This document shows positions 9,814 through 29,586 of a stretch of DNA of 32,000 nucleotides, in pieces. The notes beneath the pieces were generated by a model that searched no databases, had not been told where the DNA came from, and saw only the letters and a program-made list of their open reading frames with translations. Origin of the DNA: Candidatus Saccharimonadota bacterium (GTDB lineage Bacteria > Patescibacteriota > Gracilibacteria > Absconditabacterales > Absconditicoccaceae); assembly GCA_000503875.1 (NCBI GenBank), contig CP006913.1, positions 1,145,761-1,177,760 of the forward strand. The letters run 5' to 3'. The position numbers and the translations under genes are program-made. Each line of letters opens with the position of its first letter. The first letter of the stretch is position 1.

Positions 9814-11175
9814 TTATTTACTACGCCAGATTTCTTGGCCATCTAATTTCAACCAAAGAACTTCTTTGTTTTCGTATTCGTTCTTCTTCCAAAAGATTGC
9901 ATAGCGTTTTTTGTCTGCACGAAGTAATGCAATAAAAGGCATACTTCTTTCATCTTCAGGAAGACATCCCTTTTTAATGATTTTAGCCTGTTTGGTTAAG
10001 GCACTATCTAACTCGGCATAAACATAATCAATAACGAATTTATTAAGAGGAGATTCTCCTTCTTTTTCAATTACATCCATGCGGATGTTTTCATTATCTA
10101 TACATTTAAAACGATTCTTAAAAAGAGGAACACTTGTCCAATATCTTTGGTATGCACCAAGTTGAATTTCTCCCCTGAAAGGAACAAGTTCTAATTTTTC
10201 TAATTCAATTAAAAGTTGTTCTCTAGCGGTGATTGTATCAATAGGTGTAGGTATAACTTGTCTCGTGAGCGTATCCAATGGAATACTATCCGATTTAGGA
10301 ATTGTATCCAATACAGGAACACTGTCCAGTTGTATTGAATCAAGTTTCGGAATAAATACAGGTTTTGTTAAGCTGTAAATGTCGTATCCACCTGATCCAC
10401 CAGGACGATCAGATGCAAAATAATATAGGGAGTCAGTTTGTTTCCTAACATCTATAGTATTGCATCCAGAGATGTTAATAGGATAAGGAAGCTTTTGTGG
10501 AGCTTGCCATTCCCCATCAACAAAGAGAGATCGATATACACAAAACCATCCATCCCGGTTGGAATTAAAATATAACTCTTTTCCGTTTGGAGTAATCCAA
10601 ACACCATTCTCATCAAATGATGAATTGAGTATCTCTACAGGAACTGGTTTTTCTTTTCCTGTTTGAAAGTAGATGTCATAATTACCACTACGATTGCTCG
10701 TAAAATAAAGAGAATCTCCTTTTGTAGCTATACTATTTTCATCATAATCGGAATTGATGTAAGGAACTTCTTGTAATGATTCTATGCTAATTCCTTGTTT
10801 CCTTGGAGCCATAAACAACTTTCCTTGGTCATTGAAATAACCTCGATAAAAAAACCAATACTTATTAGACATACCAACCAATGCTGAATTTGCATCGATA
10901 TTGGCACTGCCATAACTAAGTTTCTTTACCTTACCAAAGCTAGTATCTGCCATCTGTGTATAATACACCTTCTCTGTATATTCCAGAAGTCTATCTTCAC
11001 GATTATTTCTTCGTTTAGAAGTAAACAACAACATAGAATCTACAGGAAAAGGTGAATACTCTGCAGCAACCGAATTGATGTCTAGATTTTTCATAACCCA
11101 GGTTGAATCCGGTTGCTGAGCAAACCCCAAAAAAGAACAAGAAACAGAATAAATAATTATCAGTAGCTTTTTCAT
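9814..11175 (-). CDS. secreted PD40/TolB-like beta-propeller repeat protein with an uncharacterised C-terminal domain (453 aa)
   Basis: This is a track ORF with signal peptide ...SFLGFAQ. It has repeated PD40-type motifs (DSLYFTSNRSGNYDIYF, GKELYFNSNRDG, DSLYYFASDRPGGSGGYDIYS). I saw no OmpA-C motif. It stops at TAA. Confidence 0.7.
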   Translation of the reverse strand: MKKLLIIIYSVSCSFLGFAQQPDSTWVMKNLDINSVAAEYSPFPVDSMLLFTSKRRNNREDRLLEYTEKVYYTQMADTSFGKVKKLSYGSANIDANSALVGMSNKYWFFYRGYFNDQGKLFMAPRKQGISIESLQEVPYINSDYDENSIATKGDSLYFTSNRSGNYDIYFQTGKEKPVPVEILNSSFDENGVWITPNGKELYFNSNRDGWFCVYRSLFVDGEWQAPQKLPYPINISGCNTIDVRKQTDSLYYFASDRPGGSGGYDIYSLTKPVFIPKLDSIQLDSVPVLDTIPKSDSIPLDTLTRQVIPTPIDTITAREQLLIELEKLELVPFRGEIQLGAYQRYWTSVPLFKNRFKCIDNENIRMDVIEKEGESPLNKFVIDYVYAELDSALTKQAKIIKKGCLPEDERSMPFIALLRADKKRYAIFWKKNEYENKEVLWLKLDGQEIWRSK

Positions 11176-11181
11176 ACGCTA

Positions 11182-12063
11182 CTATTTAGAGGATTTCGAA
11201 TAAGGAAGCTTTAGCATTAAGACAACCTCATGTTTGGTAAACGAATAACCATATACGTCACCAAATGAATAAGAGCCGCAATACCCAAATGATATATTTT
11301 GGACATTAATTCCAAAACCACCTTTTATCGTATTTGCAGATGCATATCCTATGCTAAAAAGAATATCCTTATTGAGAATAAATTTTCCAGATACCCCATA
11401 TTGTACGCTACTGAAAGTTTGTGTGATAACATATCCACTTCCCTCCAAGAACAATACATTTTCCATCAAAGTAAATCTGTACATACCACTAGCAGCATAC
11501 GTAATATTAGTTTTGTTTTCAAAACTACTTACCATCCAATCAGTTTGACTGGGAAGTAAATTATACGCAGCGATACCAACATAGTATCTATCTACTTGAT
11601 TAAGTGCTAAACCGAAATTGGCATTAAACCAGTTTCCAGATTCGGCACCCTGGAGAATAGGATCATCTATATCGTGTACTTCTACACGATCTCTCATTAA
11701 TTTTAATTGGTTAAATCCGCCACTTAATCCAAACGAAAGTTTGGAACCACCAACAGGTACATGGTAAATAAAAGTAGCCTCAGCAGAAAGGTTTTGTAGT
11801 ACGCCACCTTCTTGCGAAGCAATCTTAAATCCACCTGCAACCCGTTGATTATTAAACGGTGAACTCCCCCAAAACATAAAGGATTTCGGATGATAATCAT
11901 AGGCACCCATTTCTGTTTGATAGAGCGTACCCAATTTTACCATTTCATTGTATCCGCCCAAACTTGGATTGGCTAAATATGGGTCATAGCCAGCCCCTAA
12001 TTGAGCGAACCCTTTCGTTGATATAAGCACTACCAACAAAAGGAAAATTCTGATTTTTTTCAT
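11182..12063 (-). CDS. PorP/SprF-family type IX secretion system membrane protein (293 aa)
   Basis: This is a track ORF with signal peptide ...STKGFAQ. Its size, alternating beta-strand-like composition and position directly downstream of a type-B CTD cargo gene fit the PorP/SprF family. It stops at TAG. Confidence 0.7.
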   Translation of the reverse strand: MKKIRIFLLLVVLISTKGFAQLGAGYDPYLANPSLGGYNEMVKLGTLYQTEMGAYDYHPKSFMFWGSSPFNNQRVAGGFKIASQEGGVLQNLSAEATFIYHVPVGGSKLSFGLSGGFNQLKLMRDRVEVHDIDDPILQGAESGNWFNANFGLALNQVDRYYVGIAAYNLLPSQTDWMVSSFENKTNITYAASGMYRFTLMENVLFLEGSGYVITQTFSSVQYGVSGKFILNKDILFSIGYASANTIKGGFGINVQNISFGYCGSYSFGDVYGYSFTKHEVVLMLKLPYSKSSK

Positions 12064-12082
12064 TGTAATATATTTTTGTTGG

Positions 12083-14641
12083 TTAGTACAATATAGTTAT
12101 TGTTTTCCAATATGGTTTTTCAGAACCATCTTGTTTAACAACTTTTAAGTATAAATAAACAAGTGATCCGGAAGCAACAAGATTACCATTTTTATTCTTG
12201 GCATCCCAAATGGTCTGAGAAGGATCTGTTGATGTAAAGATTTCGCCATCTTTGTTTTGGATAACAAGTACTATTGAGATAGCATTGTTACACAAAGAAC
12301 TAAAATCCAATACGTCATTATCTCCATCTCCATTTGGAGTAACAAGATTGGGAATAGCTACACCATTTCCTGCCATAATTTCGACAGAATCTGTTGTAAC
12401 ACAACCATTATTATCGGTTATTTGCACATAATGCCGACCAGCTGCCAAAGAATCCGCTTCCTGAGTTGTTTGAACGGGAATACCACTCCATAAGTAAGTA
12501 TGCGGTGGGGTAAAATGATCCACATATTGTACTAAGGCCGTACCATCCTCGCATTCAGGACAAGAAGTATTTTCAACTCTGAAATAAGTTCTAGGATGAT
12601 CAGGTTGTTCAATAATAACCTTTTCCATAGAGATACATCCATTATCATCGGTAACCGTTACATCATAAGACCCTGCCTTCAGTCTATCAATAATAAAACT
12701 GTTTGCGGGAGTTGTAATAGTAACCGTAGTATCAACACCTAAATAATTAGTTCCATCAAGTACTAATGTACTATTTGGTCCAGAGGTACCACCTGATACA
12801 TTCACTTCAACACTTCCTCGTCCATCATAGCATAGGCTATGGGTTGGGTTAATAGTTACTACCAAAGGGAGTGGTTGTACAAACGTAATAGTGGTATCAA
12901 AGTCACAAGTTCCATTTGAAATACGAACCAGATGATCACCAATAGGCATATCAACAAAGCTTGTAGTGTCATCAAATAACACATTTTGCGTAACTCCACC
13001 TACAGTAATATCTAGAGGAAATGCTTCCAAGTTATGAACTCTAATTATCCCTAATTCGTCGTTACACGAGATAGGAGTATTTACAAATTCAAATTGGAAA
13101 TTTGCTGGATTAGTAAGTGTCCAGGTTGTGTCAAAAACACAGCCAACACTGTCCTTAAGATGTAAGTCATAAATTCCACTACTAAGATTTGTTATAGCAT
13201 TGGTATTGTTATTCATAAGTACGCCATCTTTTTTCCAGACAAAAGAGTTTCCTCCATTACCTCCAATAACTGTTGTCGTGATACTAGCATTGGTGTATTC
13301 ATAACAACCTACAGGAACAACAACATCTGTTACATGAAGTCGGGCTGGTTCATTTATTGTTACCGCTGGCGGAATAAATGTACATCCGTTTTCATCAGTA
13401 ATTGTCAATGTATACGTTCCAGCAGCAAGTCCAGTAATAGAAGCAGTCGTTTGACCACTATCCCAAGAATAACTTAATTGACCAGTTCCTCCACTAAAAT
13501 TGGCAGTAATAGAGCCATCATTAGCTTGGAAACAAGTCAGATCTTTTTTAATTAGTTCTCCTTGAATAGGTGAATCAGGTTCCTTTATAATTACACTTTG
13601 ATCCAAAGCACATCCTGTAGAATCTTCTACATGAATAGTATATCTACCAGCAAATAAGTCAGTAACTGCTGCATTATTGCTAGAGAATCCACTCGGACCA
13701 GTAATTGTGTAAACAAAACCACTATAACTTCCTTCTGCAACTGCGTTAATACGTCCCGTATTATCTCCATAACACAAAATATTTCTTTGTGTGTAGGAAA
13801 TTTTTATTGGTGTAAGAACACTGTCAACCAACCAAGAATGTCGAAAACCTTTATTATCGTTTGTTACGACTTTAAAGATATTTCTCCCTGGATAAACTTC
13901 AGAAGAAAAACTTGCTACAGTATCTGCTACACTTGTTACATACAGTGGACCAGGAAGTAATTCAACAATAGTAACCGTGTCTTCCGGGAACTGCACTTGT
14001 GCAGGTAAATTAGCAGGAACTAAAATTGGTCTTACATCACTAATTGGCGCTGTTGCATCATAGCAAGCAGTAGAATCAATTTCGTAAGTCGTAGTAATTC
14101 CAGATAATTCATTAACAACAACAGTATCATTTCTTTGACAACCGTTTATATCAGTAAGCGTAATAAAATACGTTCCTGAATAAAGATTATCGAAAACATT
14201 AGCTGTTTGTGTTGTTTCAATAGTAGTAGTACTATCAATCAAATTATAGGTAAACCATCCGGTTCCACCTCCAGCTGTAATAGTAATCCTCCCATTTGGC
14301 AAAGGCCAATTGGAATTAGGAACTATCGCATATGCTGCAGTGATCGCAGGAGGATTATCCAGCGTATAAGTAAATGTTTCTGTTGCCAAAAGGGCATTAG
14401 TAACAGTTACGGAATACAAAGCAGCATCCAAACCAGAAGCGACTTTCCCTGAAAGAGTTGGTATAACTATACCATTTCGTTCCCATACATACGTATAAGG
14501 AGGATTAATCAATGTAGTAGTAACGGTTATTTCACCGTCCTTACCATCATGACACTTAATGTTTTCTGTGGCAGTGATCTGTGAAAAACCAGACAGCCAA
14601 AAAAACAAAAGTACCAACGTTACAATAATTTTTTGTCTCAT
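12083..14641 (-). CDS. SprB-repeat cell-surface protein with a T9SS type-B C-terminal sorting domain (gliding-motility-associated CTD), 852 aa
   Basis: This is a track ORF with signal peptide ...WLSGFSQ. It has repeated SprB-type modules (CHDGKDGEITVT, CYGDNTGRINAVAEG, CFQANDGSITANFSGGTG, CYDGRGSVEVNVSGGT). The C-terminus IPNLVTPNGDGDNDVLDF... is the hallmark of the CHU_C/type-B sorting domain. It stops at TAA. Confidence 0.85.
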   Translation of the reverse strand: MRQKIIVTLVLLFFWLSGFSQITATENIKCHDGKDGEITVTTTLINPPYTYVWERNGIVIPTLSGKVASGLDAALYSVTVTNALLATETFTYTLDNPPAITAAYAIVPNSNWPLPNGRITITAGGGTGWFTYNLIDSTTTIETTQTANVFDNLYSGTYFITLTDINGCQRNDTVVVNELSGITTTYEIDSTACYDATAPISDVRPILVPANLPAQVQFPEDTVTIVELLPGPLYVTSVADTVASFSSEVYPGRNIFKVVTNDNKGFRHSWLVDSVLTPIKISYTQRNILCYGDNTGRINAVAEGSYSGFVYTITGPSGFSSNNAAVTDLFAGRYTIHVEDSTGCALDQSVIIKEPDSPIQGELIKKDLTCFQANDGSITANFSGGTGQLSYSWDSGQTTASITGLAAGTYTLTITDENGCTFIPPAVTINEPARLHVTDVVVPVGCYEYTNASITTTVIGGNGGNSFVWKKDGVLMNNNTNAITNLSSGIYDLHLKDSVGCVFDTTWTLTNPANFQFEFVNTPISCNDELGIIRVHNLEAFPLDITVGGVTQNVLFDDTTSFVDMPIGDHLVRISNGTCDFDTTITFVQPLPLVVTINPTHSLCYDGRGSVEVNVSGGTSGPNSTLVLDGTNYLGVDTTVTITTPANSFIIDRLKAGSYDVTVTDDNGCISMEKVIIEQPDHPRTYFRVENTSCPECEDGTALVQYVDHFTPPHTYLWSGIPVQTTQEADSLAAGRHYVQITDNNGCVTTDSVEIMAGNGVAIPNLVTPNGDGDNDVLDFSSLCNNAISIVLVIQNKDGEIFTSTDPSQTIWDAKNKNGNLVASGSLVYLYLKVVKQDGSEKPYWKTITILY

Positions 14642-18180: not shown

Positions 18181-19614
18181 TTAAAATAGTATTTTCCAAA
18201 GTTGCCAAGAGTTTCCTTGCTGATACAAAGAGAAGCATTTTCCATTGGCTATGTTCTCAGACATTTGCTGTTCTCATAACCATATATATAAAGGTCTATT
18301 CAGATTTTTATAACTTTTTTCTAACATCTCGCATTTATAACTTCCATCATTTTCTCGCCGCTTAATCCATTCAGTGTGGTTTCGTTTATCTAATTCAGCC
18401 ATTCAAGGATTGATGTAATCTCTTTGACTCCAGCCCATAATCCAAGGAGTATAATTTTTGTGCGAATTTATAATTATGGCATTTTCTTCTGTTCTATTTT
18501 TGATGTTTTTTATCGCAGAAAATTCTTCTTTGCTAATTAAAGGTATTGCGTTGATGTTGATATGGACAATATAATTAAACCCTACAGCCAATCCAATTAT
18601 AGCAAAAATAAAAATTCAGAATTTTTTAATTTCCCATTTTTCACAAACAAATTTATATAGATTCCAAATTCCATAAGCAGCCAATATCACCACAAATATA
18701 TCAAAAAAAACAATCGCTCTATTGAAATTAACCATTCTCAAGACTAGTCGTATTGCTCAAATAATATATCAAATATCTATAATTCAAAACCTTTTTCTTA
18801 TGATTTTGTAAAAGAATCAAACCAAACTAAACAATAAAACAAATCGTTGAATCTTTATATATTCGGCAATCATAATAAAATCTCAACCAGTCTGACTTGC
18901 TACAATAGTTCAAGTTGCTTTGATCGCTTCCGACATAATCTGATGCCAAATTGGGATATACATTGCAAGTCAAATAACTCCAGCTAATCATCGAAATATA
19001 GTTTGTTTCCAAGGGATTTTTTTGTTTGTATATCGCTCCAAAATCCAAGATCAAAAAAGAAGCAATCATGTATATAACGCAGTATGTTTATGGAGTAAAA
19101 TAATAATCAAAAACAAAATAGATTGTCGCAATACTTTGTTTTTTTGTATAAAGATTAGGACTAGCAGCATAAGATTGACAGCAATAATCTGCTTAAAATA
19201 TCCTCGCCAAAATACCTGATAGCCGACAATTGACATCCAATACAGCCAAGCTCATATTACTCACATCCATTTGTTTTCTTTTTTCAATAACACAAAAATC
19301 AGAACTCATGGAAGGAGGTTGATTATTCATATTCATCGGGTTAGCCACCAATCAAAGTTCGCTCACATTTTGCCAAAAATTGCCATTATTGTTCCAAGTA
19401 ACGGTTCATGTCTCACCCACCCAGGAAGCAGAGAAAAATCAAAATTCCACAAAATCTTGGAATATTCTACAAAAATTCATTTGTACATTCCTGGGTCATA
19501 GCCTAGTGGAGTTTCATTTCCTACAAAGTATCGTAGTCTATACAGTCAGAATAAAATTCAGATCCATAATAGGATCCATGTTCAATATTTTTTTCAAAAA
19601 CCTCCTTTCTCCAT
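18181..19614 (-). CDS. polytopic integral membrane protein (477 aa), possibly GT-C/ArnT-like glycosyltransferase
   Basis: On the minus strand, ATG (19612-19614) to TAA (18181-18183) is 1,434 nt in one frame, with about 24 in-frame TGA and no TAA or TAG. Track ORF 18403..18591 is in this frame. The protein is dominated by hydrophobic helices. The functional guess is weak. Confidence 0.6.
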
Positions 19615-19709
19615 CTATATATATCAATTAAAAACTTTTTAAAAATTTGACAGAAATACAAAATTTATATATAATTAGATTAATATTTTTTATTTATATA
19701 TTTTTTGTT

Positions 19710-21152
19710 ATGAAGAAAACAACAGAAAAGGACTCTTTGGTTTCTCAGATCAAAGCGATTCCAAATCAAGTTAAAATTTTTGTTTTGGGATTGTTTGTGG
19801 TAGTTTTGGCTCTTGTTAGTGTTTTGCCTAACTTAAATTATAAATTCCTTCAAGGAAGCATTTTAAATATAAAAACAGAATCAAAAGTTAATGGTTATGG
19901 TTATTGATATGGTTATGAACCTCCATATGTTTTTGTAGATGATGATTGATATGGATATGGTTATCAAGTAGATGAAAACACTAAAAAATATATTAGAATT
20001 AGAAATATTGAATTTTATTTTGATAATATGTCTGATATATTAACTGTAAAAGTAATATATAGTCCAAGATATGAAGGCACTATGATTGTAGAACCATCTA
20101 TTTATCTTGTTGAGCCAGCACAAATAAATTATTGAACCACAAATCCATCATATATTGGGAAATGTTTGGTTTTGGAAAACAATGATATTTGTATTATGAA
20201 ACAACAATTTACTATAAATAGAACATTGCATGGAAATCAAATAAAAGTAACACCAGTATTTAAAACAAGAGTTACTGCAGTATCAAATAATGATCAAAGA
20301 GCTTTATGACAAATAATAATCGATAATGCCAGCACAAATACAACTTGTCAAACACCAGAAAACATATTAGCGTGTTCTTTGCATTTAACATCTTGTCCAA
20401 GTGAATGTAGACCAGCTCAATGTCAAACACCAGAAAATGTATTAGCGTGTTCTTTGGGGTTAGATTCTTGTCCACAAGAATGTATATATAATTGAAATAC
20501 TACTTTAACAGGGAATGTTTGTCAAACACCAGAAAATGTATTAGCATGTTCTTTGCATTTAGCATCTTGTCCACAAGAATGTAGACCAGCCCAATGTCAA
20601 ATACCAGAGAATGTATTAGCGTGTTCTTTAGGGTTAGATTCTTGTCCACAAGAATGTATATATGGAGCAACTTCAGGAAACACAACATCATACTGGACTA
20701 ACTGGCTCAATAGAGATGGTCCATCTGGAAACGGAGATTATGAAACATATGCTGATTTTATGCCAGTTCCTTGTAAAGATGGATATCAACCAATTGATGT
20801 AAAATTTATTCGTGCTGACGAAAGTGAAACAACACAAACTATTCATTTTTCATCGAAAGGTGGGTATTGTTTAAATAGTGAAAATTCAAAATGATGTGCA
20901 GATTATAAAGTGAAATTCTTTTGTGAAAAAACAGGAAGCAAACCAACGATTATTGAAAAGCCAAAAGAAACACCAAGAGTTATTGAACAACCAAAGGTTG
21001 TAGAAACACCGATAGTTATAGAAAAGCCAAGAACTGTAAAAGAAGCAATAACTATAGAAGCTAAACCAACACCAAAGACAAAAGAAACGATTGAAACTAA
21101 AACTACAGCAGAATCAACAATTTTAGATATTTTCAAAGATCTTTTAAAATAA
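19710..21152 (+). CDS. secreted or anchored Cys-rich repeat protein with a WxxW (mucin-2-type) domain (480 aa)
   Basis: ATG 19710 (MKKTTEKDS...) is followed by a TM/signal anchor. Track ORFs 19647.., 20553.. and 20910.. are all in frame 0 and are joined by TGA. Features in order are a GYGYGYGY tract, four CQTPENVLACSL-x-L-x-SCPxEC units, YWTNWLNRDGPSGNGDYE...GGYCLN...GCADYKVKFFC (WxxW pattern) and a PK/E/T-rich tail with repeats of the form [IV]IE[KQ]P-[KR]. Confidence 0.75.
20346..20663 (+). repeat. in-frame tandem repeat: two 174-nt super-units, each holding two Cys-rich sub-units (75 nt, then 69 nt within the 99-nt second half)
   Basis: 20346-20489 aligns with 20520-20663 with about a dozen mismatches over 144 nt by eye. 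TGTCAAACACCAGAAAA starts recur at 20346, 20421, 20520 and 20595. Confidence 0.85.
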
Positions 21153-21173: not shown

Positions 21174-21198
21174 GACTCCTCCTCGTGGGGAGTTTTTC
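21174..21198 (+). terminator. rho-independent terminator
   Basis: ACTCC...GGAGT hairpin followed by TTTTT, about 20 nt after stop 21152. Confidence 0.5.
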
Positions 21199-21265
21199 TT
21201 TAGACTTGAAAAAACAAACAAATACCATAAAACAAATCAGATTTTTATTCTATATTTTGGATATT

Positions 21266-25769: not shown

Positions 25770-25803
25770 AATGGTAGTTTTATTTGCTACCAAAAGTTTT
25801 TTT

Positions 25804-26871
25804 ATGAAACGAAAGCGCTATAGTCGAATAGTAGCTAGTGTGATTTCCCTTGCATCAACAGGGGTTTTTGCTAGTTCAATCATTCCTATAGAAGACTATA
25901 ACCAATCAATTCGCACCTTTTCCTGATCTACAGAAATTGGTATCTTGGAAAAACGACGATTAACACAAAAAGCGCTTTGTACTATAGAACAAGATGGTGA
26001 AGGTTTTGTTATTTCACCCAGTTGTTTGCTTCGTCCTATTATCGCAGAAATGTCTGTAAAATCAGCTTTGGATTTACTAACACCATATTTAGAAGGAGTT
26101 CCAATTGTGTACAATACTGCTTCTCCCAATTTTTCTTACGAAGCAACTACTCCGATTTTTTCCCAAAAACTATTTCCAGTAACTATTAGAGACCCTCTTG
26201 ATTACGCTTTTTTATTATCACTACAAAAAGAGGAAAAAGTTTTTCGCGTTTCCAAGGTACAACTAGCATATCTTATGAGCAAATCCTGGTCATGGTATGG
26301 AGTTTGGAAAGATATGGCACCACTAAAACCTTGTACGAAACAAAATTATTATGTGGCATTTTCAAGTCTCCAAGATTATGTTCGAGCATCAGGAACTCAG
26401 TTAAATCTTAATGATATGATAGCAAATCGTGCTGGATACTGTAAAGGAACAGGACCCAAAAATCTAATGTTTTATGGTGGGGTTTGTGGATTCGCAACTC
26501 AATTATTTAGATTATCATTACTTATTCCCAACGTTGATACGGTAGAGAGATATGAGCATAGTCAGCGATACGTCGCTTATTATTCAGAATATATTTTTGG
26601 TGATGATGCAGCATTATATCAAAACAACAAAAAACTGATTTTACAAAACAATATAGGAACTGATATTTATCTCAAGACTTTAGATTTTAGAAATAGTACC
26701 TATCTAATTGCTATTGTTCCCAAGAAAATTTCTTCTTATGTTGAAATCAAAAAAGAACAAGTAGGTAACCTAAAAGGTCAGGTAACTAAAGTAGTTAAGA
26801 CACTTAAAAGCTCTCGAGTAGCTCAAGAATTTCTTTCTTACTATACACAAAGAACCTATACCGTAAGGTAA
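25804..26871 (+). CDS. VanW-like domain protein (355 aa)
   Basis: ATG 25804 (MKRKRYSRIVASVISLAS..., signal/anchor) reads through the single TGA 25924-25926 into track ORF 25945..26871. The FYGGVCGFATQLFRLSL motif resembles the VanW GGGVCQ core. Confidence 0.65.
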
Positions 26872-26940: not shown

Positions 26941-27891
26941 ATGAAAAAATTTCTAATACTCTTAATTATTGTTATTCTTGTTTTCTGATGATATCTTTGG
27001 ATAAAAAACAATCCAAATAATTTAACAATAATTTCTATCAAAGAAAAATTAGGTTTAATACCAGTTGTTCAGACACAAAATAATGAATGGTATAACAAAA
27101 CAAAAACTGGCGTATTTTTGAAAAATGGAACCGATTTAAATGGAGACTTGTATTCATTCGAGTTTCTTACGGGAGCATATGCTAAGGATAAAAACAATGT
27201 TTTTTATAAATGAGAAGAAATTGTTTGAGCAGATAGAGATTCTTTCCAAATCATAAATTCAGAATATAGTCTAGATACAAAGCACATATATTATCAATCA
27301 GAGATTCTTTCTTGAGTAGATCCCAAAACGTATAATAGTCAAAATTGATATTTAAAACTTCCTTCTACAGAAATAGAAAAAATAGGAAAAATTATTCAGA
27401 ATAAAAAAAATATAATCATAGAAGAATTAGGTCTCTCATTAGATATACCTACAACGTGGTCTCTCTTTCTTAAAGAAGATAATGAGCTTGTAAGAGGGGA
27501 AGAACATAGTACGAAAGAAATAAAAATAATAACAGACAAAACAAATAACGAAAAAAATCCCATATATGTAACATTAATGGTGAATAAAACTTCTGAAGAG
27601 GAATTGATTAGTATAAAAACAGATCAAGAAAAAGAGTACGAAAAAATTAATAGTTGAGAACTTGTTGTTAATGGATGTTGATGAGCGTTGCAATGTTATC
27701 TCTTTAAGATAAATACTTCTCTATATAATGTAATTATAGGAGAAATAGCGCCTATTATTCAATCTATTTCTCAAGATAATAATCAGTCAGATTGAATTAT
27801 TGAAGATACCTCAATTAGTACGCCAGATAGCGATTATATATTTAAGACAACAGTTGCTGCGATAAAATCTTTAAAAGAAATAGAAAAATAA
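26941..27891 (+). CDS. DKNYY-repeat membrane-anchored protein (316 aa)
   Basis: ATG 26941 (MKKFLILLIIVILVFGGYLWI) to TAA 27889-27891 is one frame with multiple TGA. The AKDKNNVFYKGEEIVGADRDSFQII and LDTKHIYYQSEILSGVDPKTY segments match the DKNYY repeat style. Confidence 0.6.
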
Positions 27892-29223: not shown

Positions 29224-29250
29224 TTTTTTATTTATTATATGTATATTCTC

Positions 29251-29586
29251 ATGAAAAAAATAATCGTTAGTGTATTAGCTTTAAGTGCTCTTGTTCTTAC
29301 AGGATGTTCACAAGAACCAAAACAAAATTTAGATAATTTTGCAAAATGTATTACAGAAAAATGAGCAATGATTTATACATCTACAACATGTAGTCATTGT
29401 CAGAAACAAAAAGTGCTCTTCGGTGATAGCTGGCAATATATCAAAAATGTAGACTGTAATGATAATCCAATAGTTTGTTCAAATGCAGGAATTCAAGGAG
29501 TTCCTAATCGAGTAATAAATTGAGAAAATATAATGGGACAACAATCGTTAGAATTCTTGGCAGAAAAAACCGGTTGTGAAATCTAA
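29251..29586 (+). CDS. thioredoxin-like (VKOR-partner type) lipoprotein (111 aa)
   Basis: It has a lipobox (VLTGC) and a CSHC redox motif. The KGAMIYTSTTCSHCQKQKVLFG...VDC...C...GIQGVPN..INGE...G..SLEFLAEKTGC pattern resembles the Trx-like domains fused to bacterial VKOR. It has two in-frame TGA and ends at TAA 29584-29586. Confidence 0.6.

Follow-up and report, generated by a model that had tools for sequence, protein, structure and literature searches.

Gel-forming mucins are built from VWD-C8-TIL assemblies, long O-glycosylated proline/threonine/serine-rich (PTS) regions and a C-terminal cystine knot, and a survey of mucin evolution places the appearance of the CysD or WxxW domain in mucins at the Bilateria (PMC4948705). 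MUC2 CysD1 is a small beta-sandwich with two bound Ca2+ ions that clasps other domains (PMC7599080), mucin CysD domains engage in protein-protein contacts (PMC7599080; PMC11912381), and these domains have a role in the self-assembly and cross-linking of mucins (PMC7599080, PMC3195396, PMC11912381). The present analysis concerns a bacterial gene with such a domain, located in a 32,000-nucleotide (32-kb) stretch of contig CP006913.1 (assembly GCA_000503875.1), the whole of which is referred to here as the window. An earlier reading of the DNA, made from its letters without database searches (the sequence-only reading), had proposed that the gene encodes a secreted protein combining a mucin-type WxxW domain with a novel Cys-rich repeat array, possibly an adhesin or host-interaction protein. 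As set out below, the domain belongs to the CysD family and is carried on a scaffold of cysteine units on which distal domains are exchanged between relatives; on balance, the product is probably a variable modular surface binding protein. The features on which this account depends are as follows.

19710-21152, + strand: complete gene, 480 codons before the TAA stop; genetic code 25, under which its six in-frame TGA codons are Gly
20346-20657, + strand: array of four 21-residue Cys units (C-x8-C-x6-C-x3-C), at amino acids (aa) 213-233, 238-258, 271-291 and 296-316
20691-20924, + strand: WxxW/CysD domain in a minimal form with four cysteines, aa 328-405

Judged by its sequence and its predicted model, the domain is a true homologue of the mucin CysD domains and a member of PF13330 by every test run. 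The Pfam profile PF13330 (Mucin2_WxxW) matches aa 329-405 with 46.5 bits (E = 6e-12; the gathering score is 22.4), the match spans profile positions 1-88 of 88, and the isolated domain scores 51.9 bits; the same assignment was already available, precomputed, for the window protein. This full-length profile match bears out the proposed domain as well as its proposed position at 20691-20924. A profile constructed from prokaryotic copies only, when searched against PDB sequences, retrieved MUC2 CysD2 8ck2 (E = 3e-5), 6tm6 and 6tm2, and also matched MUC5AC CysD7 (8ov0) and MUC5B (8oer). In an AlphaFold sub-model of aa 205-412, based on a 148-row alignment, the WxxW domain has predicted local distance difference test (pLDDT) values of 92-98. 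A Foldseek search of this sub-model against the PDB returned MUC5AC CysD7 (8ov0, E = 2e-5, template modelling (TM) score 0.63) and a MUC5B CysD domain (8oer_I, E = 1e-4, TM 0.66) as top matches, in agreement with the proposed fold; nothing beyond MUC5AC/MUC5B CysD was found in the PDB below E = 0.1, and a search of a viral structure library gave no significant match.

The window domain keeps each column whose conservation across 560 aligned domain instances is 80% or more (W332, P338, G342, D343, E345, G384, C387, N389, C396, D398, Y399 and C405), together with the acidic D-x-P-x-G-x-GD-x-E block, and the ratio of nonsynonymous to synonymous divergence (dN/dS) of 0.17-0.39 among four orthologues corresponds to purifying selection. 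Its only cysteines are the four family-invariant ones, C355, C387, C396 and C405; the cysteine-rich disulfide framework typical of mucin CysD is not present, which leaves membership as defined by the hidden Markov model (HMM) unaffected. In comparison with the CysD domains of MUC2, MUC5AC and MUC5B (8ck2, 6tm6, 8ov0, 8oer), to which it is homologous by HMM, profile-to-PDB search and predicted fold, the window domain has in common the motifs W-x-x-W, D-x-P-x-G-x-GD-x-E, G-x-x-C-x-N and C-x-DY-x-V-[KR]-F-x-C, a predicted extracellular location and an adjoining Pro/Thr-rich segment, yet it has four cysteines instead of about 8-10, is present in a single copy and resides in a code-25 bacterial host. 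The window protein, unlike mucins, is without VWD, C8, TIL or CTCK domains and without a long glycosylated PTS region, and a Pfam scan at E up to 10 found PF13330 alone; it is not a mucin. C-mannosylation of the WxxW motif was also considered and set aside, as the first Trp is replaced by Arg in three orthologues and no candidate enzyme was identified.

The array that precedes the domain consists of four units with the consensus CQTPENVLACSLGLDSCPxEC, in which the four Cys and the Pro never vary, and E, L and L hardly do, across 37 units from 17 proteins. At the DNA level it is a 174-nt block in 1.8 copies with 92% matches (Tandem Repeats Finder, TRF), a pattern that points to recent duplication or homogenisation of a tandem two-unit block. 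The unit has no Pfam match at E up to 10 and no NCBIfam match, its profile reached a best E of 0.5 against PDB sequences, and Foldseek aligned nothing to the array part of the sub-model. The four units are thus found where the sequence-only reading had placed them, outside any curated family or solved structure, and their claimed novelty stands with respect to known families; it does not extend to this gene in particular, the unit being lineage-specific. Single copies occur directly after the SLH region of S-layer-like proteins of ~1000 aa (P0015-P0019, L015-L020), whose contigs are TGA-recoded and have a GC content of 32-38%, and the unit is also found in small proteins with a Gly-Tyr (GY) tract (P0013, P0014, L021). 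When Joint Genome Institute (JGI) metagenomes were scanned with exact patterns, no more than seven loci were confirmed, and the Cys unit is therefore lineage-restricted; a two-unit profile search returned one 65-aa fragment and thus gives no census.

The near-identical 21-residue unit (CQTPENVLSCSLGLDTCPAEC) that the S-layer-like proteins and the window protein have in common stands in different surroundings. The former begin with a classical signal peptide and an SLH region, carry a single Cys unit and continue with Ig-like arrays of ~800 aa, without any WxxW domain; the window protein has four of the units, and no SLH region is detectable in it. In the model of the units, each forms a helix on PENxLACS and a short 3-10 turn on CPxEC (pLDDT 55-77). 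They are probably disulfide-stapled, since the extracellular context favours disulfides over binding of an Fe-S cluster or metal. The latter possibility is less likely, with only sub-threshold ferredoxin-type matches found (FpoI, E = 0.77; Fer4_13, E = 0.004 and below the cut-off, in P0012).

The position of the unit in S-layer-like proteins, directly after the SLH region, agrees with an alternative, in our view rather unlikely, whereby the window protein is a structural component of the envelope: its Cys units would dock it beside, or in the manner of, the SLH/S-layer proteins and its WxxW domains would knit the coat through homotypic Ca2+-dependent contacts. Several family members indeed carry an SLH-like module (PF00395), the role of CysD in mucin self-assembly and cross-linking (PMC7599080, PMC3195396, PMC11912381) offers a precedent, and the consensus promoter of the gene (see below) suggests an abundant product; the window copy, however, has no detectable SLH domain, the partners of WxxW in other bacteria are adhesin-like or lectin-like, and exchange of the distal domain for unrelated cassettes, as between near-identical strains, is not what one would expect of a purely structural lattice protein.

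Such a swap is seen among the relatives of the gene. These lie in the same neighbourhood (SprB/CHU_C gene, dnaJ, cmk, a gene for a protein of 437-439 aa, ..., topA), with syntenic loci in GCA_964620295.1, in JGI 3300076802 and on one Logan contig, and they differ in composition: P0003 combines a WxxW domain with three Cys units and with a module that is related to other members' SLH-like region, P0004 has a large insert, P0005 has no WxxW domain, and P0007 and P0008 carry PF00395 (precomputed). By windowed identity, P0002 and P0009 are 100% identical over aa 1-270 and ~15% identical thereafter; P0007 and P0008 exhibit a similarly sharp switch, and P0006 and P0007 differ solely in aa 91-205. 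The contigs encoding P0002 and P0009, obtained in different sequencing runs, are 98.8% identical over 951 nt (L023 1050-2000 versus L024 1-951), a stretch comprising the upstream region and the first 289 codons, and are unrelated from there on, the break falling where the second Cys unit ends; beyond it, one allele continues with the WxxW cassette and the other with a different beta-rich cassette. Furthermore, synonymous divergence (dS) between P0003 and P0004 is 0.155 for the WxxW cassettes versus 1.9 (saturated) for the leaders. From these sequence comparisons, the conserved scaffold of leader and Cys units carries any of at least three alternative cassettes at its C-terminal side, of which WxxW is one. 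No silent cassettes were found elsewhere within the window.

The variable surface proteins of mycoplasmas provide an analogy, being mosaic or cassette-variable proteins of bacteria with small genomes. Like these, and like a hypervariable surface-protein gene of a BD1-5 Gracilibacterium, the family described here has a conserved export leader, an exchangeable exposed region and variation concentrated at a single surface-protein locus in a bacterium that depends on a host; unlike in those systems, whole folded domains are swapped at Cys-unit junctions, and not repeat numbers or phase-variable promoters. The window gene is not homologous to these systems (BD1-5 gene: bioRxiv 10.1101/595074). Variation of this kind might also serve as a surface decoy or as phage-receptor variation, with the head being swapped to escape phages or grazers and the WxxW domain having no ligand of its own. 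Exchange of cassettes with conserved junctions, disagreement between cassette and backbone phylogenies and the occurrence of a hypervariable surface-protein gene in other Gracilibacteria (bioRxiv 10.1101/595074) are all in line with this proposal, which we nevertheless regard as very unlikely, as a dN/dS of 0.17-0.39 for WxxW and the retention of all family-invariant residues argue for a conserved biochemical activity.

Outside animals, the domain is rare and scattered. A profile search of 1.84 billion representative proteins returned 1086 clusters at E up to 1e-3; the WxxW family is small, most of its members are multi-copy, and those that were looked up come from sharks, a soft coral, a sponge and one metagenome-assembled genome (MAG) of the Pyrinomonadaceae (Acidobacteriota). 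A scan of prokaryotes with two exact peptide patterns and one genome per species, which provides a lower bound, matched two Woesearchaeota MAGs (three contigs), four Myxococcota, a Neisseriales MAG, a Desulfobulbaceae MAG and the syntenic relative. A word-index homology search with the WxxW domain alone as the query returned no candidates, such short queries giving no census. In the Myxococcota, WxxW is the C-terminal module of secreted proteins with pAdhesive_15, F5/8 type C or PKD-like domains; in the Woesearchaeota, it comes first behind the signal peptide in long Cys-rich proteins, one of which, read directly, has a subtilisin-like sequence. The Woesearchaeota copies are the closest prokaryotic relatives outside the family (48-53% identity) and also have a short amphipathic C-terminal peptide. 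In the other prokaryotic proteins the same domain is thus a terminal module of secreted, adhesin-like or Cys-rich proteins, yet its partner domains differ and none has the C-x8-C-x6-C-x3-C unit, the leader or the GY tract.

The statement that the domain is uncommon in bacteria consequently holds as to its rarity and fails where absence is meant, at least five bacterial lineages and DPANN archaea carrying it. Among the papers searched, those that name PF13330 or the 'WxxW domain' do not, to judge by title and abstract, seem to treat prokaryotes; the prokaryotic occurrence is rare, scattered and undiscussed, and it is not unique to the window gene. Among animals, WxxW proteins are present in the sponge Oscarella pearsei (P0088) and the soft coral Dendronephthya gigantea (P0052), and the domain therefore predates the Bilateria, earlier than the point at which PMC4948705 places CysD. 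The window domain is closest to the DPANN archaeal copies, which have a similar C-terminal amphipathic tail. A broader proposal would make the locus a domain-cassette variation system in an ultra-small bacterium dependent on a host, in which the highly conserved Cys units act both as recombination junctions and as a disulfide-stapled stalk, alternative binding heads (WxxW/CysD being one) are swapped inside one lineage or from one to another so as to alter host or ligand specificity, and CysD derives from an old surface-adhesion pool of DPANN archaea and candidate phyla radiation (CPR) bacteria and is not an animal invention; we consider this unlikely. Beyond what standard annotation reveals, the new elements are the Cys module, the connection between this module and the clade's S-layer-like proteins, the exchange of cassettes and the scattered prokaryotic occurrence of WxxW.

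The gene itself starts with ATG at 19710 and stops with TAA at 21150-21152, its frame of 1443 nt containing in-frame TGA at aa 66, 80, 142, 200, 262 and 395. Its 480-aa translation is a 100% match to a public database protein (P0001), and the open reading frame (ORF) that the sequence-only reading had joined at 19710-21152 is a single 480-codon gene under code 25. In the window, ORFs of at least 600 nt amount to 10.5 kb with three stop codons versus 28.9 kb with TAA and TAG only, and 20 of the 23 delimited genes have in-frame TGA. In TopA, TGA stands at the conserved Gly of FL-G-PDY, LSA-G-RVQS and GI-G-RPSTYA, and in DnaJ at conserved Gly in the G/F-rich region and in HPDR-GG-D. Within the WxxW domain, TGA codon 395 (NSENSK-G-C) aligns with the Gly of standard-code Woesearchaeota relatives (NSENPSGCLDY). 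Since TGA acts as a sense codon throughout the window and occupies Gly positions that are universally conserved, code 25 is the correct table; the source organism is a code-25 CPR bacterium of the Gracilibacteria/Absconditabacteria type. The GC content of the gene (31%) is similar to that of its neighbours, that of the window being 32%. An origin of the gene through eukaryotic contamination, assembly chimerism or decay into a stop-broken pseudogene might be suspected from the six breaks in its standard-code frame and from a domain best known from animals. It is nonetheless extremely improbable given the use of TGA as a sense codon on conserved Gly throughout the window, the presence of the gene, with its TGA codons, in the same neighbourhood in independent assemblies, a dN/dS below 0.4 and a GC content (31%) like that of the neighbours.

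The remaining features of the gene and its flanks are the following.

19647-19675, + strand: sigma-70-type promoter-like site TTGACA-17-TATAAT, 12 of 12 consensus matches, ~35 nt 5' of the ATG
19710-19886, + strand: conserved N-terminal leader, aa 1-59, with a basic n-region, a hydrophobic helix and a conserved motif; invariant columns
19893-19967, + strand: Gly-Tyr/acidic tract, aa 62-86, GYGYGYGYEPPYVFVDDDGYGYGY, two Gly of which are TGA codons
19968-20345, + strand: module A, aa 87-212, beta-rich, no detectable homologue
20937-21104, + strand: extended tail rich in K/T/E/P/I, aa 410-465 (56 residues), with a weak (V/I)IE(K/Q)PK hexapeptide periodicity
21105-21149, + strand: conserved C-terminal amphipathic peptide TAESTILDIFKDLLK, aa 466-480, modelled as a helix at 466-479
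21179-21202, + strand: intrinsic-terminator-like hairpin and T run, the hairpin itself at 21179-21192

With these flanking signals the gene looks like a strongly promoted single-gene unit, the promoter being a prediction from a consensus scan. The sole hydrophobic segment of the protein lies at aa 21-41 (mean Kyte-Doolittle value 2.9, modelled helix 19-41) and is followed by the conserved leader motif LPNLN-x-K-x-LQG-[SN]-[VI]-LN. Related small proteins have [LM]-x-A and then SV at the position of LQG, which fits a signal-peptidase site. As far as its sequence indicates, the leader may be retained as a signal anchor or may instead be a long signal peptide that is removed after LQG; the N-terminal anchor of the sequence-only reading thus survives as a hydrophobic segment of one kind or the other. 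The same reading was accurate as to the GYGY/acidic tract (aa 62-86), which has a period of 6 at 19891-19917 (TRF), and as to the repeat-type tail, rich in K/T/E/P/I and with a weak 18-nt periodicity at 20966-21024 (68% matches, TRF); it had passed over the segment of aa 87-212 and the conserved C-terminal amphipathic peptide ILDIFKDLLK. The window Gly-Tyr tract is partly encoded by (GGT/TGA)-TAT repeats, and such tracts (GYGYGY...) recur in otherwise differing Cys-unit proteins of the recoded clade (P0013, P0014, L021); a role in wall association or cross-linking is possible.

Module A holds the position that the SLH-like region occupies in other family members. The SLH domain PF00395 is absent from the window protein, with no Pfam match and E = 2.7 for aa 85-212 against the SLH region of P0015. 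A tblastn alignment had hinted that module A is a degenerate SLH region, which this pairwise test, performed without the Cys unit, does not support. Direct reading of the sequence, whose C-terminus is ...TAESTILDIFKDLLK, found neither LPXTG nor a second hydrophobic segment, and a Pfam scan found no type IX C-terminal domain (Por_Secre_tail or CHU_C); the protein is neither an SLH, an LPXTG nor a type IX C-terminal-domain protein. The C-terminal peptide ILDIFKDLLK (aa 471-480, 21120-21149), which is LLEMVKNIFK in the other cassette type, was considered together with the C-termini of P0010, P0011 and L005 and is similar to the ends of Woesearchaeota WxxW proteins (KILDFFRNLFS, LLQKIFQWFRKVF, FLKKIFEWFGRLFG). 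It may also resemble the membrane-targeting helices of MinD-type proteins; it may be an anchoring or sorting signal shared by ultra-small bacteria and archaea, or a product of convergence.

Taken as a surface binding protein, the product would be exported, and possibly anchored, by its single N-terminal hydrophobic leader. The extracellular part would then comprise the Gly-Tyr tract, the orphan beta-rich module and a stalk of four disulfide-stapled helical Cys units, beyond which the distal WxxW/CysD beta-sandwich, calcium-stabilised as in mucins, would form the binding head, followed by the extended K/T/E/P-rich tail that ends in a short amphipathic helix. The target of the head would be a protein or a glycoconjugate, presented either by another cell or by the envelope of the cell itself. 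Recombination at the Cys units would exchange what flanks them (on one side WxxW or one of two or more unrelated cassettes, on the other an SLH-like region or module A), and exchange of the head would vary, from strain to strain, what the cell binds or what binds the cell. In favour of a binding role we count the partners of bacterial WxxW, which are adhesin-like or carbohydrate-binding (pAdhesive_15, F5/8 type C, PKD); the suggestion of an adhesin or host-interaction protein draws on these domain partners together with the cassette variation. The gene, its code, the identity of the domain, the lack of a known family for the Cys unit, the synteny and the mosaicism are shown; a surface location, disulfides, Ca2+ binding, an adhesive function and an adaptive purpose of the variation are inferred.

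Several points weigh against it. Mucin CysD domains mediate self-assembly rather than adhesion to foreign cells, and the homology fits a structural part in the envelope of the cell itself just as well. The eponymous WxxW is not conserved in the clade, three orthologues having Arg for the first Trp (YRTEW). The fold of the Cys units and any disulfide pairing in them are tentative, the model of the array having a moderate pLDDT (55-77), the full-length AlphaFold model, built on a 9-row alignment, has a pLDDT of 39.5, for which reason the sub-model of aa 205-412 was used instead, and export is suggested by one hydrophobic segment and by analogy. Furthermore, the lifestyle of an episymbiont or predator is assumed from the lineage.

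Should the binding-protein account prove true, it would widen the taxonomic range generally given for the mucin CysD/WxxW domain, to which the gene and its relatives add recoded bacteria of the CPR, several other bacterial phyla, DPANN archaea and, among animals, a sponge and a soft coral; the bacterial version, minimal with its four cysteines, would be convenient for finding out what the domain's conserved core does. A 21-residue module with four cysteines, so far unannotated, would mark envelope proteins of the clade that reads TGA as Gly, and the strongly promoted mosaic surface locus would be a candidate route by which uncultivated host-dependent bacteria vary their contact surface. The protein is a modular bacterial surface protein built with a known extracellular domain and not a new kind of system; the finding is useful for work on CPR cell surfaces and a mild surprise for specialists of the mucin domain.

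Several neighbouring genes also encode membrane or envelope proteins, and the stretch around topA is rich in exported proteins. The divergent neighbour (18181-19614, - strand) encodes a polytopic membrane protein of 477 aa with an unusual abundance of Trp (21 TGG codons) and of TGA-Gly (24 codons); its synteny with the surface-protein gene extends to L001 and L002, and L023 has at the same position a partial minus-strand gene of at least 358 aa, probably for the same neighbour. The protein has no Pfam, NCBIfam or PDB match, and the idea of a GT-C-type glycosyltransferase found no support in these searches; it is possible that it modifies or exports the surface protein. Probable envelope proteins are a VanW-like protein (25771-26871; PF04294, E = 5e-10) and a DKNYY-family protein (26941-27891; PF13644, E = 2e-16). 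A small lipoprotein-like protein encoded 8 kb downstream (29239-29586, + strand) has a leader ending in LTGC, a CSHC motif and weak matches to the Pfam models Thioredoxin and DSBA, neither of which reaches its curated cut-off. The protein, a candidate thiol-disulfide oxidoreductase acting outside the cytoplasm, is relevant to the many Cys-rich proteins that the organism exports, and such a thioredoxin-fold CxxC protein downstream is compatible with extracytoplasmic disulfide formation.

On the other side, a three-gene cluster of Bacteroidota-style type IX secretion (9814-14641, - strand; also L001 1-1026 and L002 1-958) comprises a PD40/TolB-like gene, a PorP/SprF gene (PF11751, E = 2e-34) and an SprB-repeat cargo gene with CHU_C (12083-14641). 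Its 1598 codons, 126 of them for Gly, include no in-frame TGA, whereas TGA accounts for ~30% of Gly codons in the other 20 window genes, the chance of finding none in the cluster being ~5e-20. Two related recoded genomes carry the SprB-like gene in synteny, there too with no TGA, and the cluster was likely transferred from a standard-code donor.

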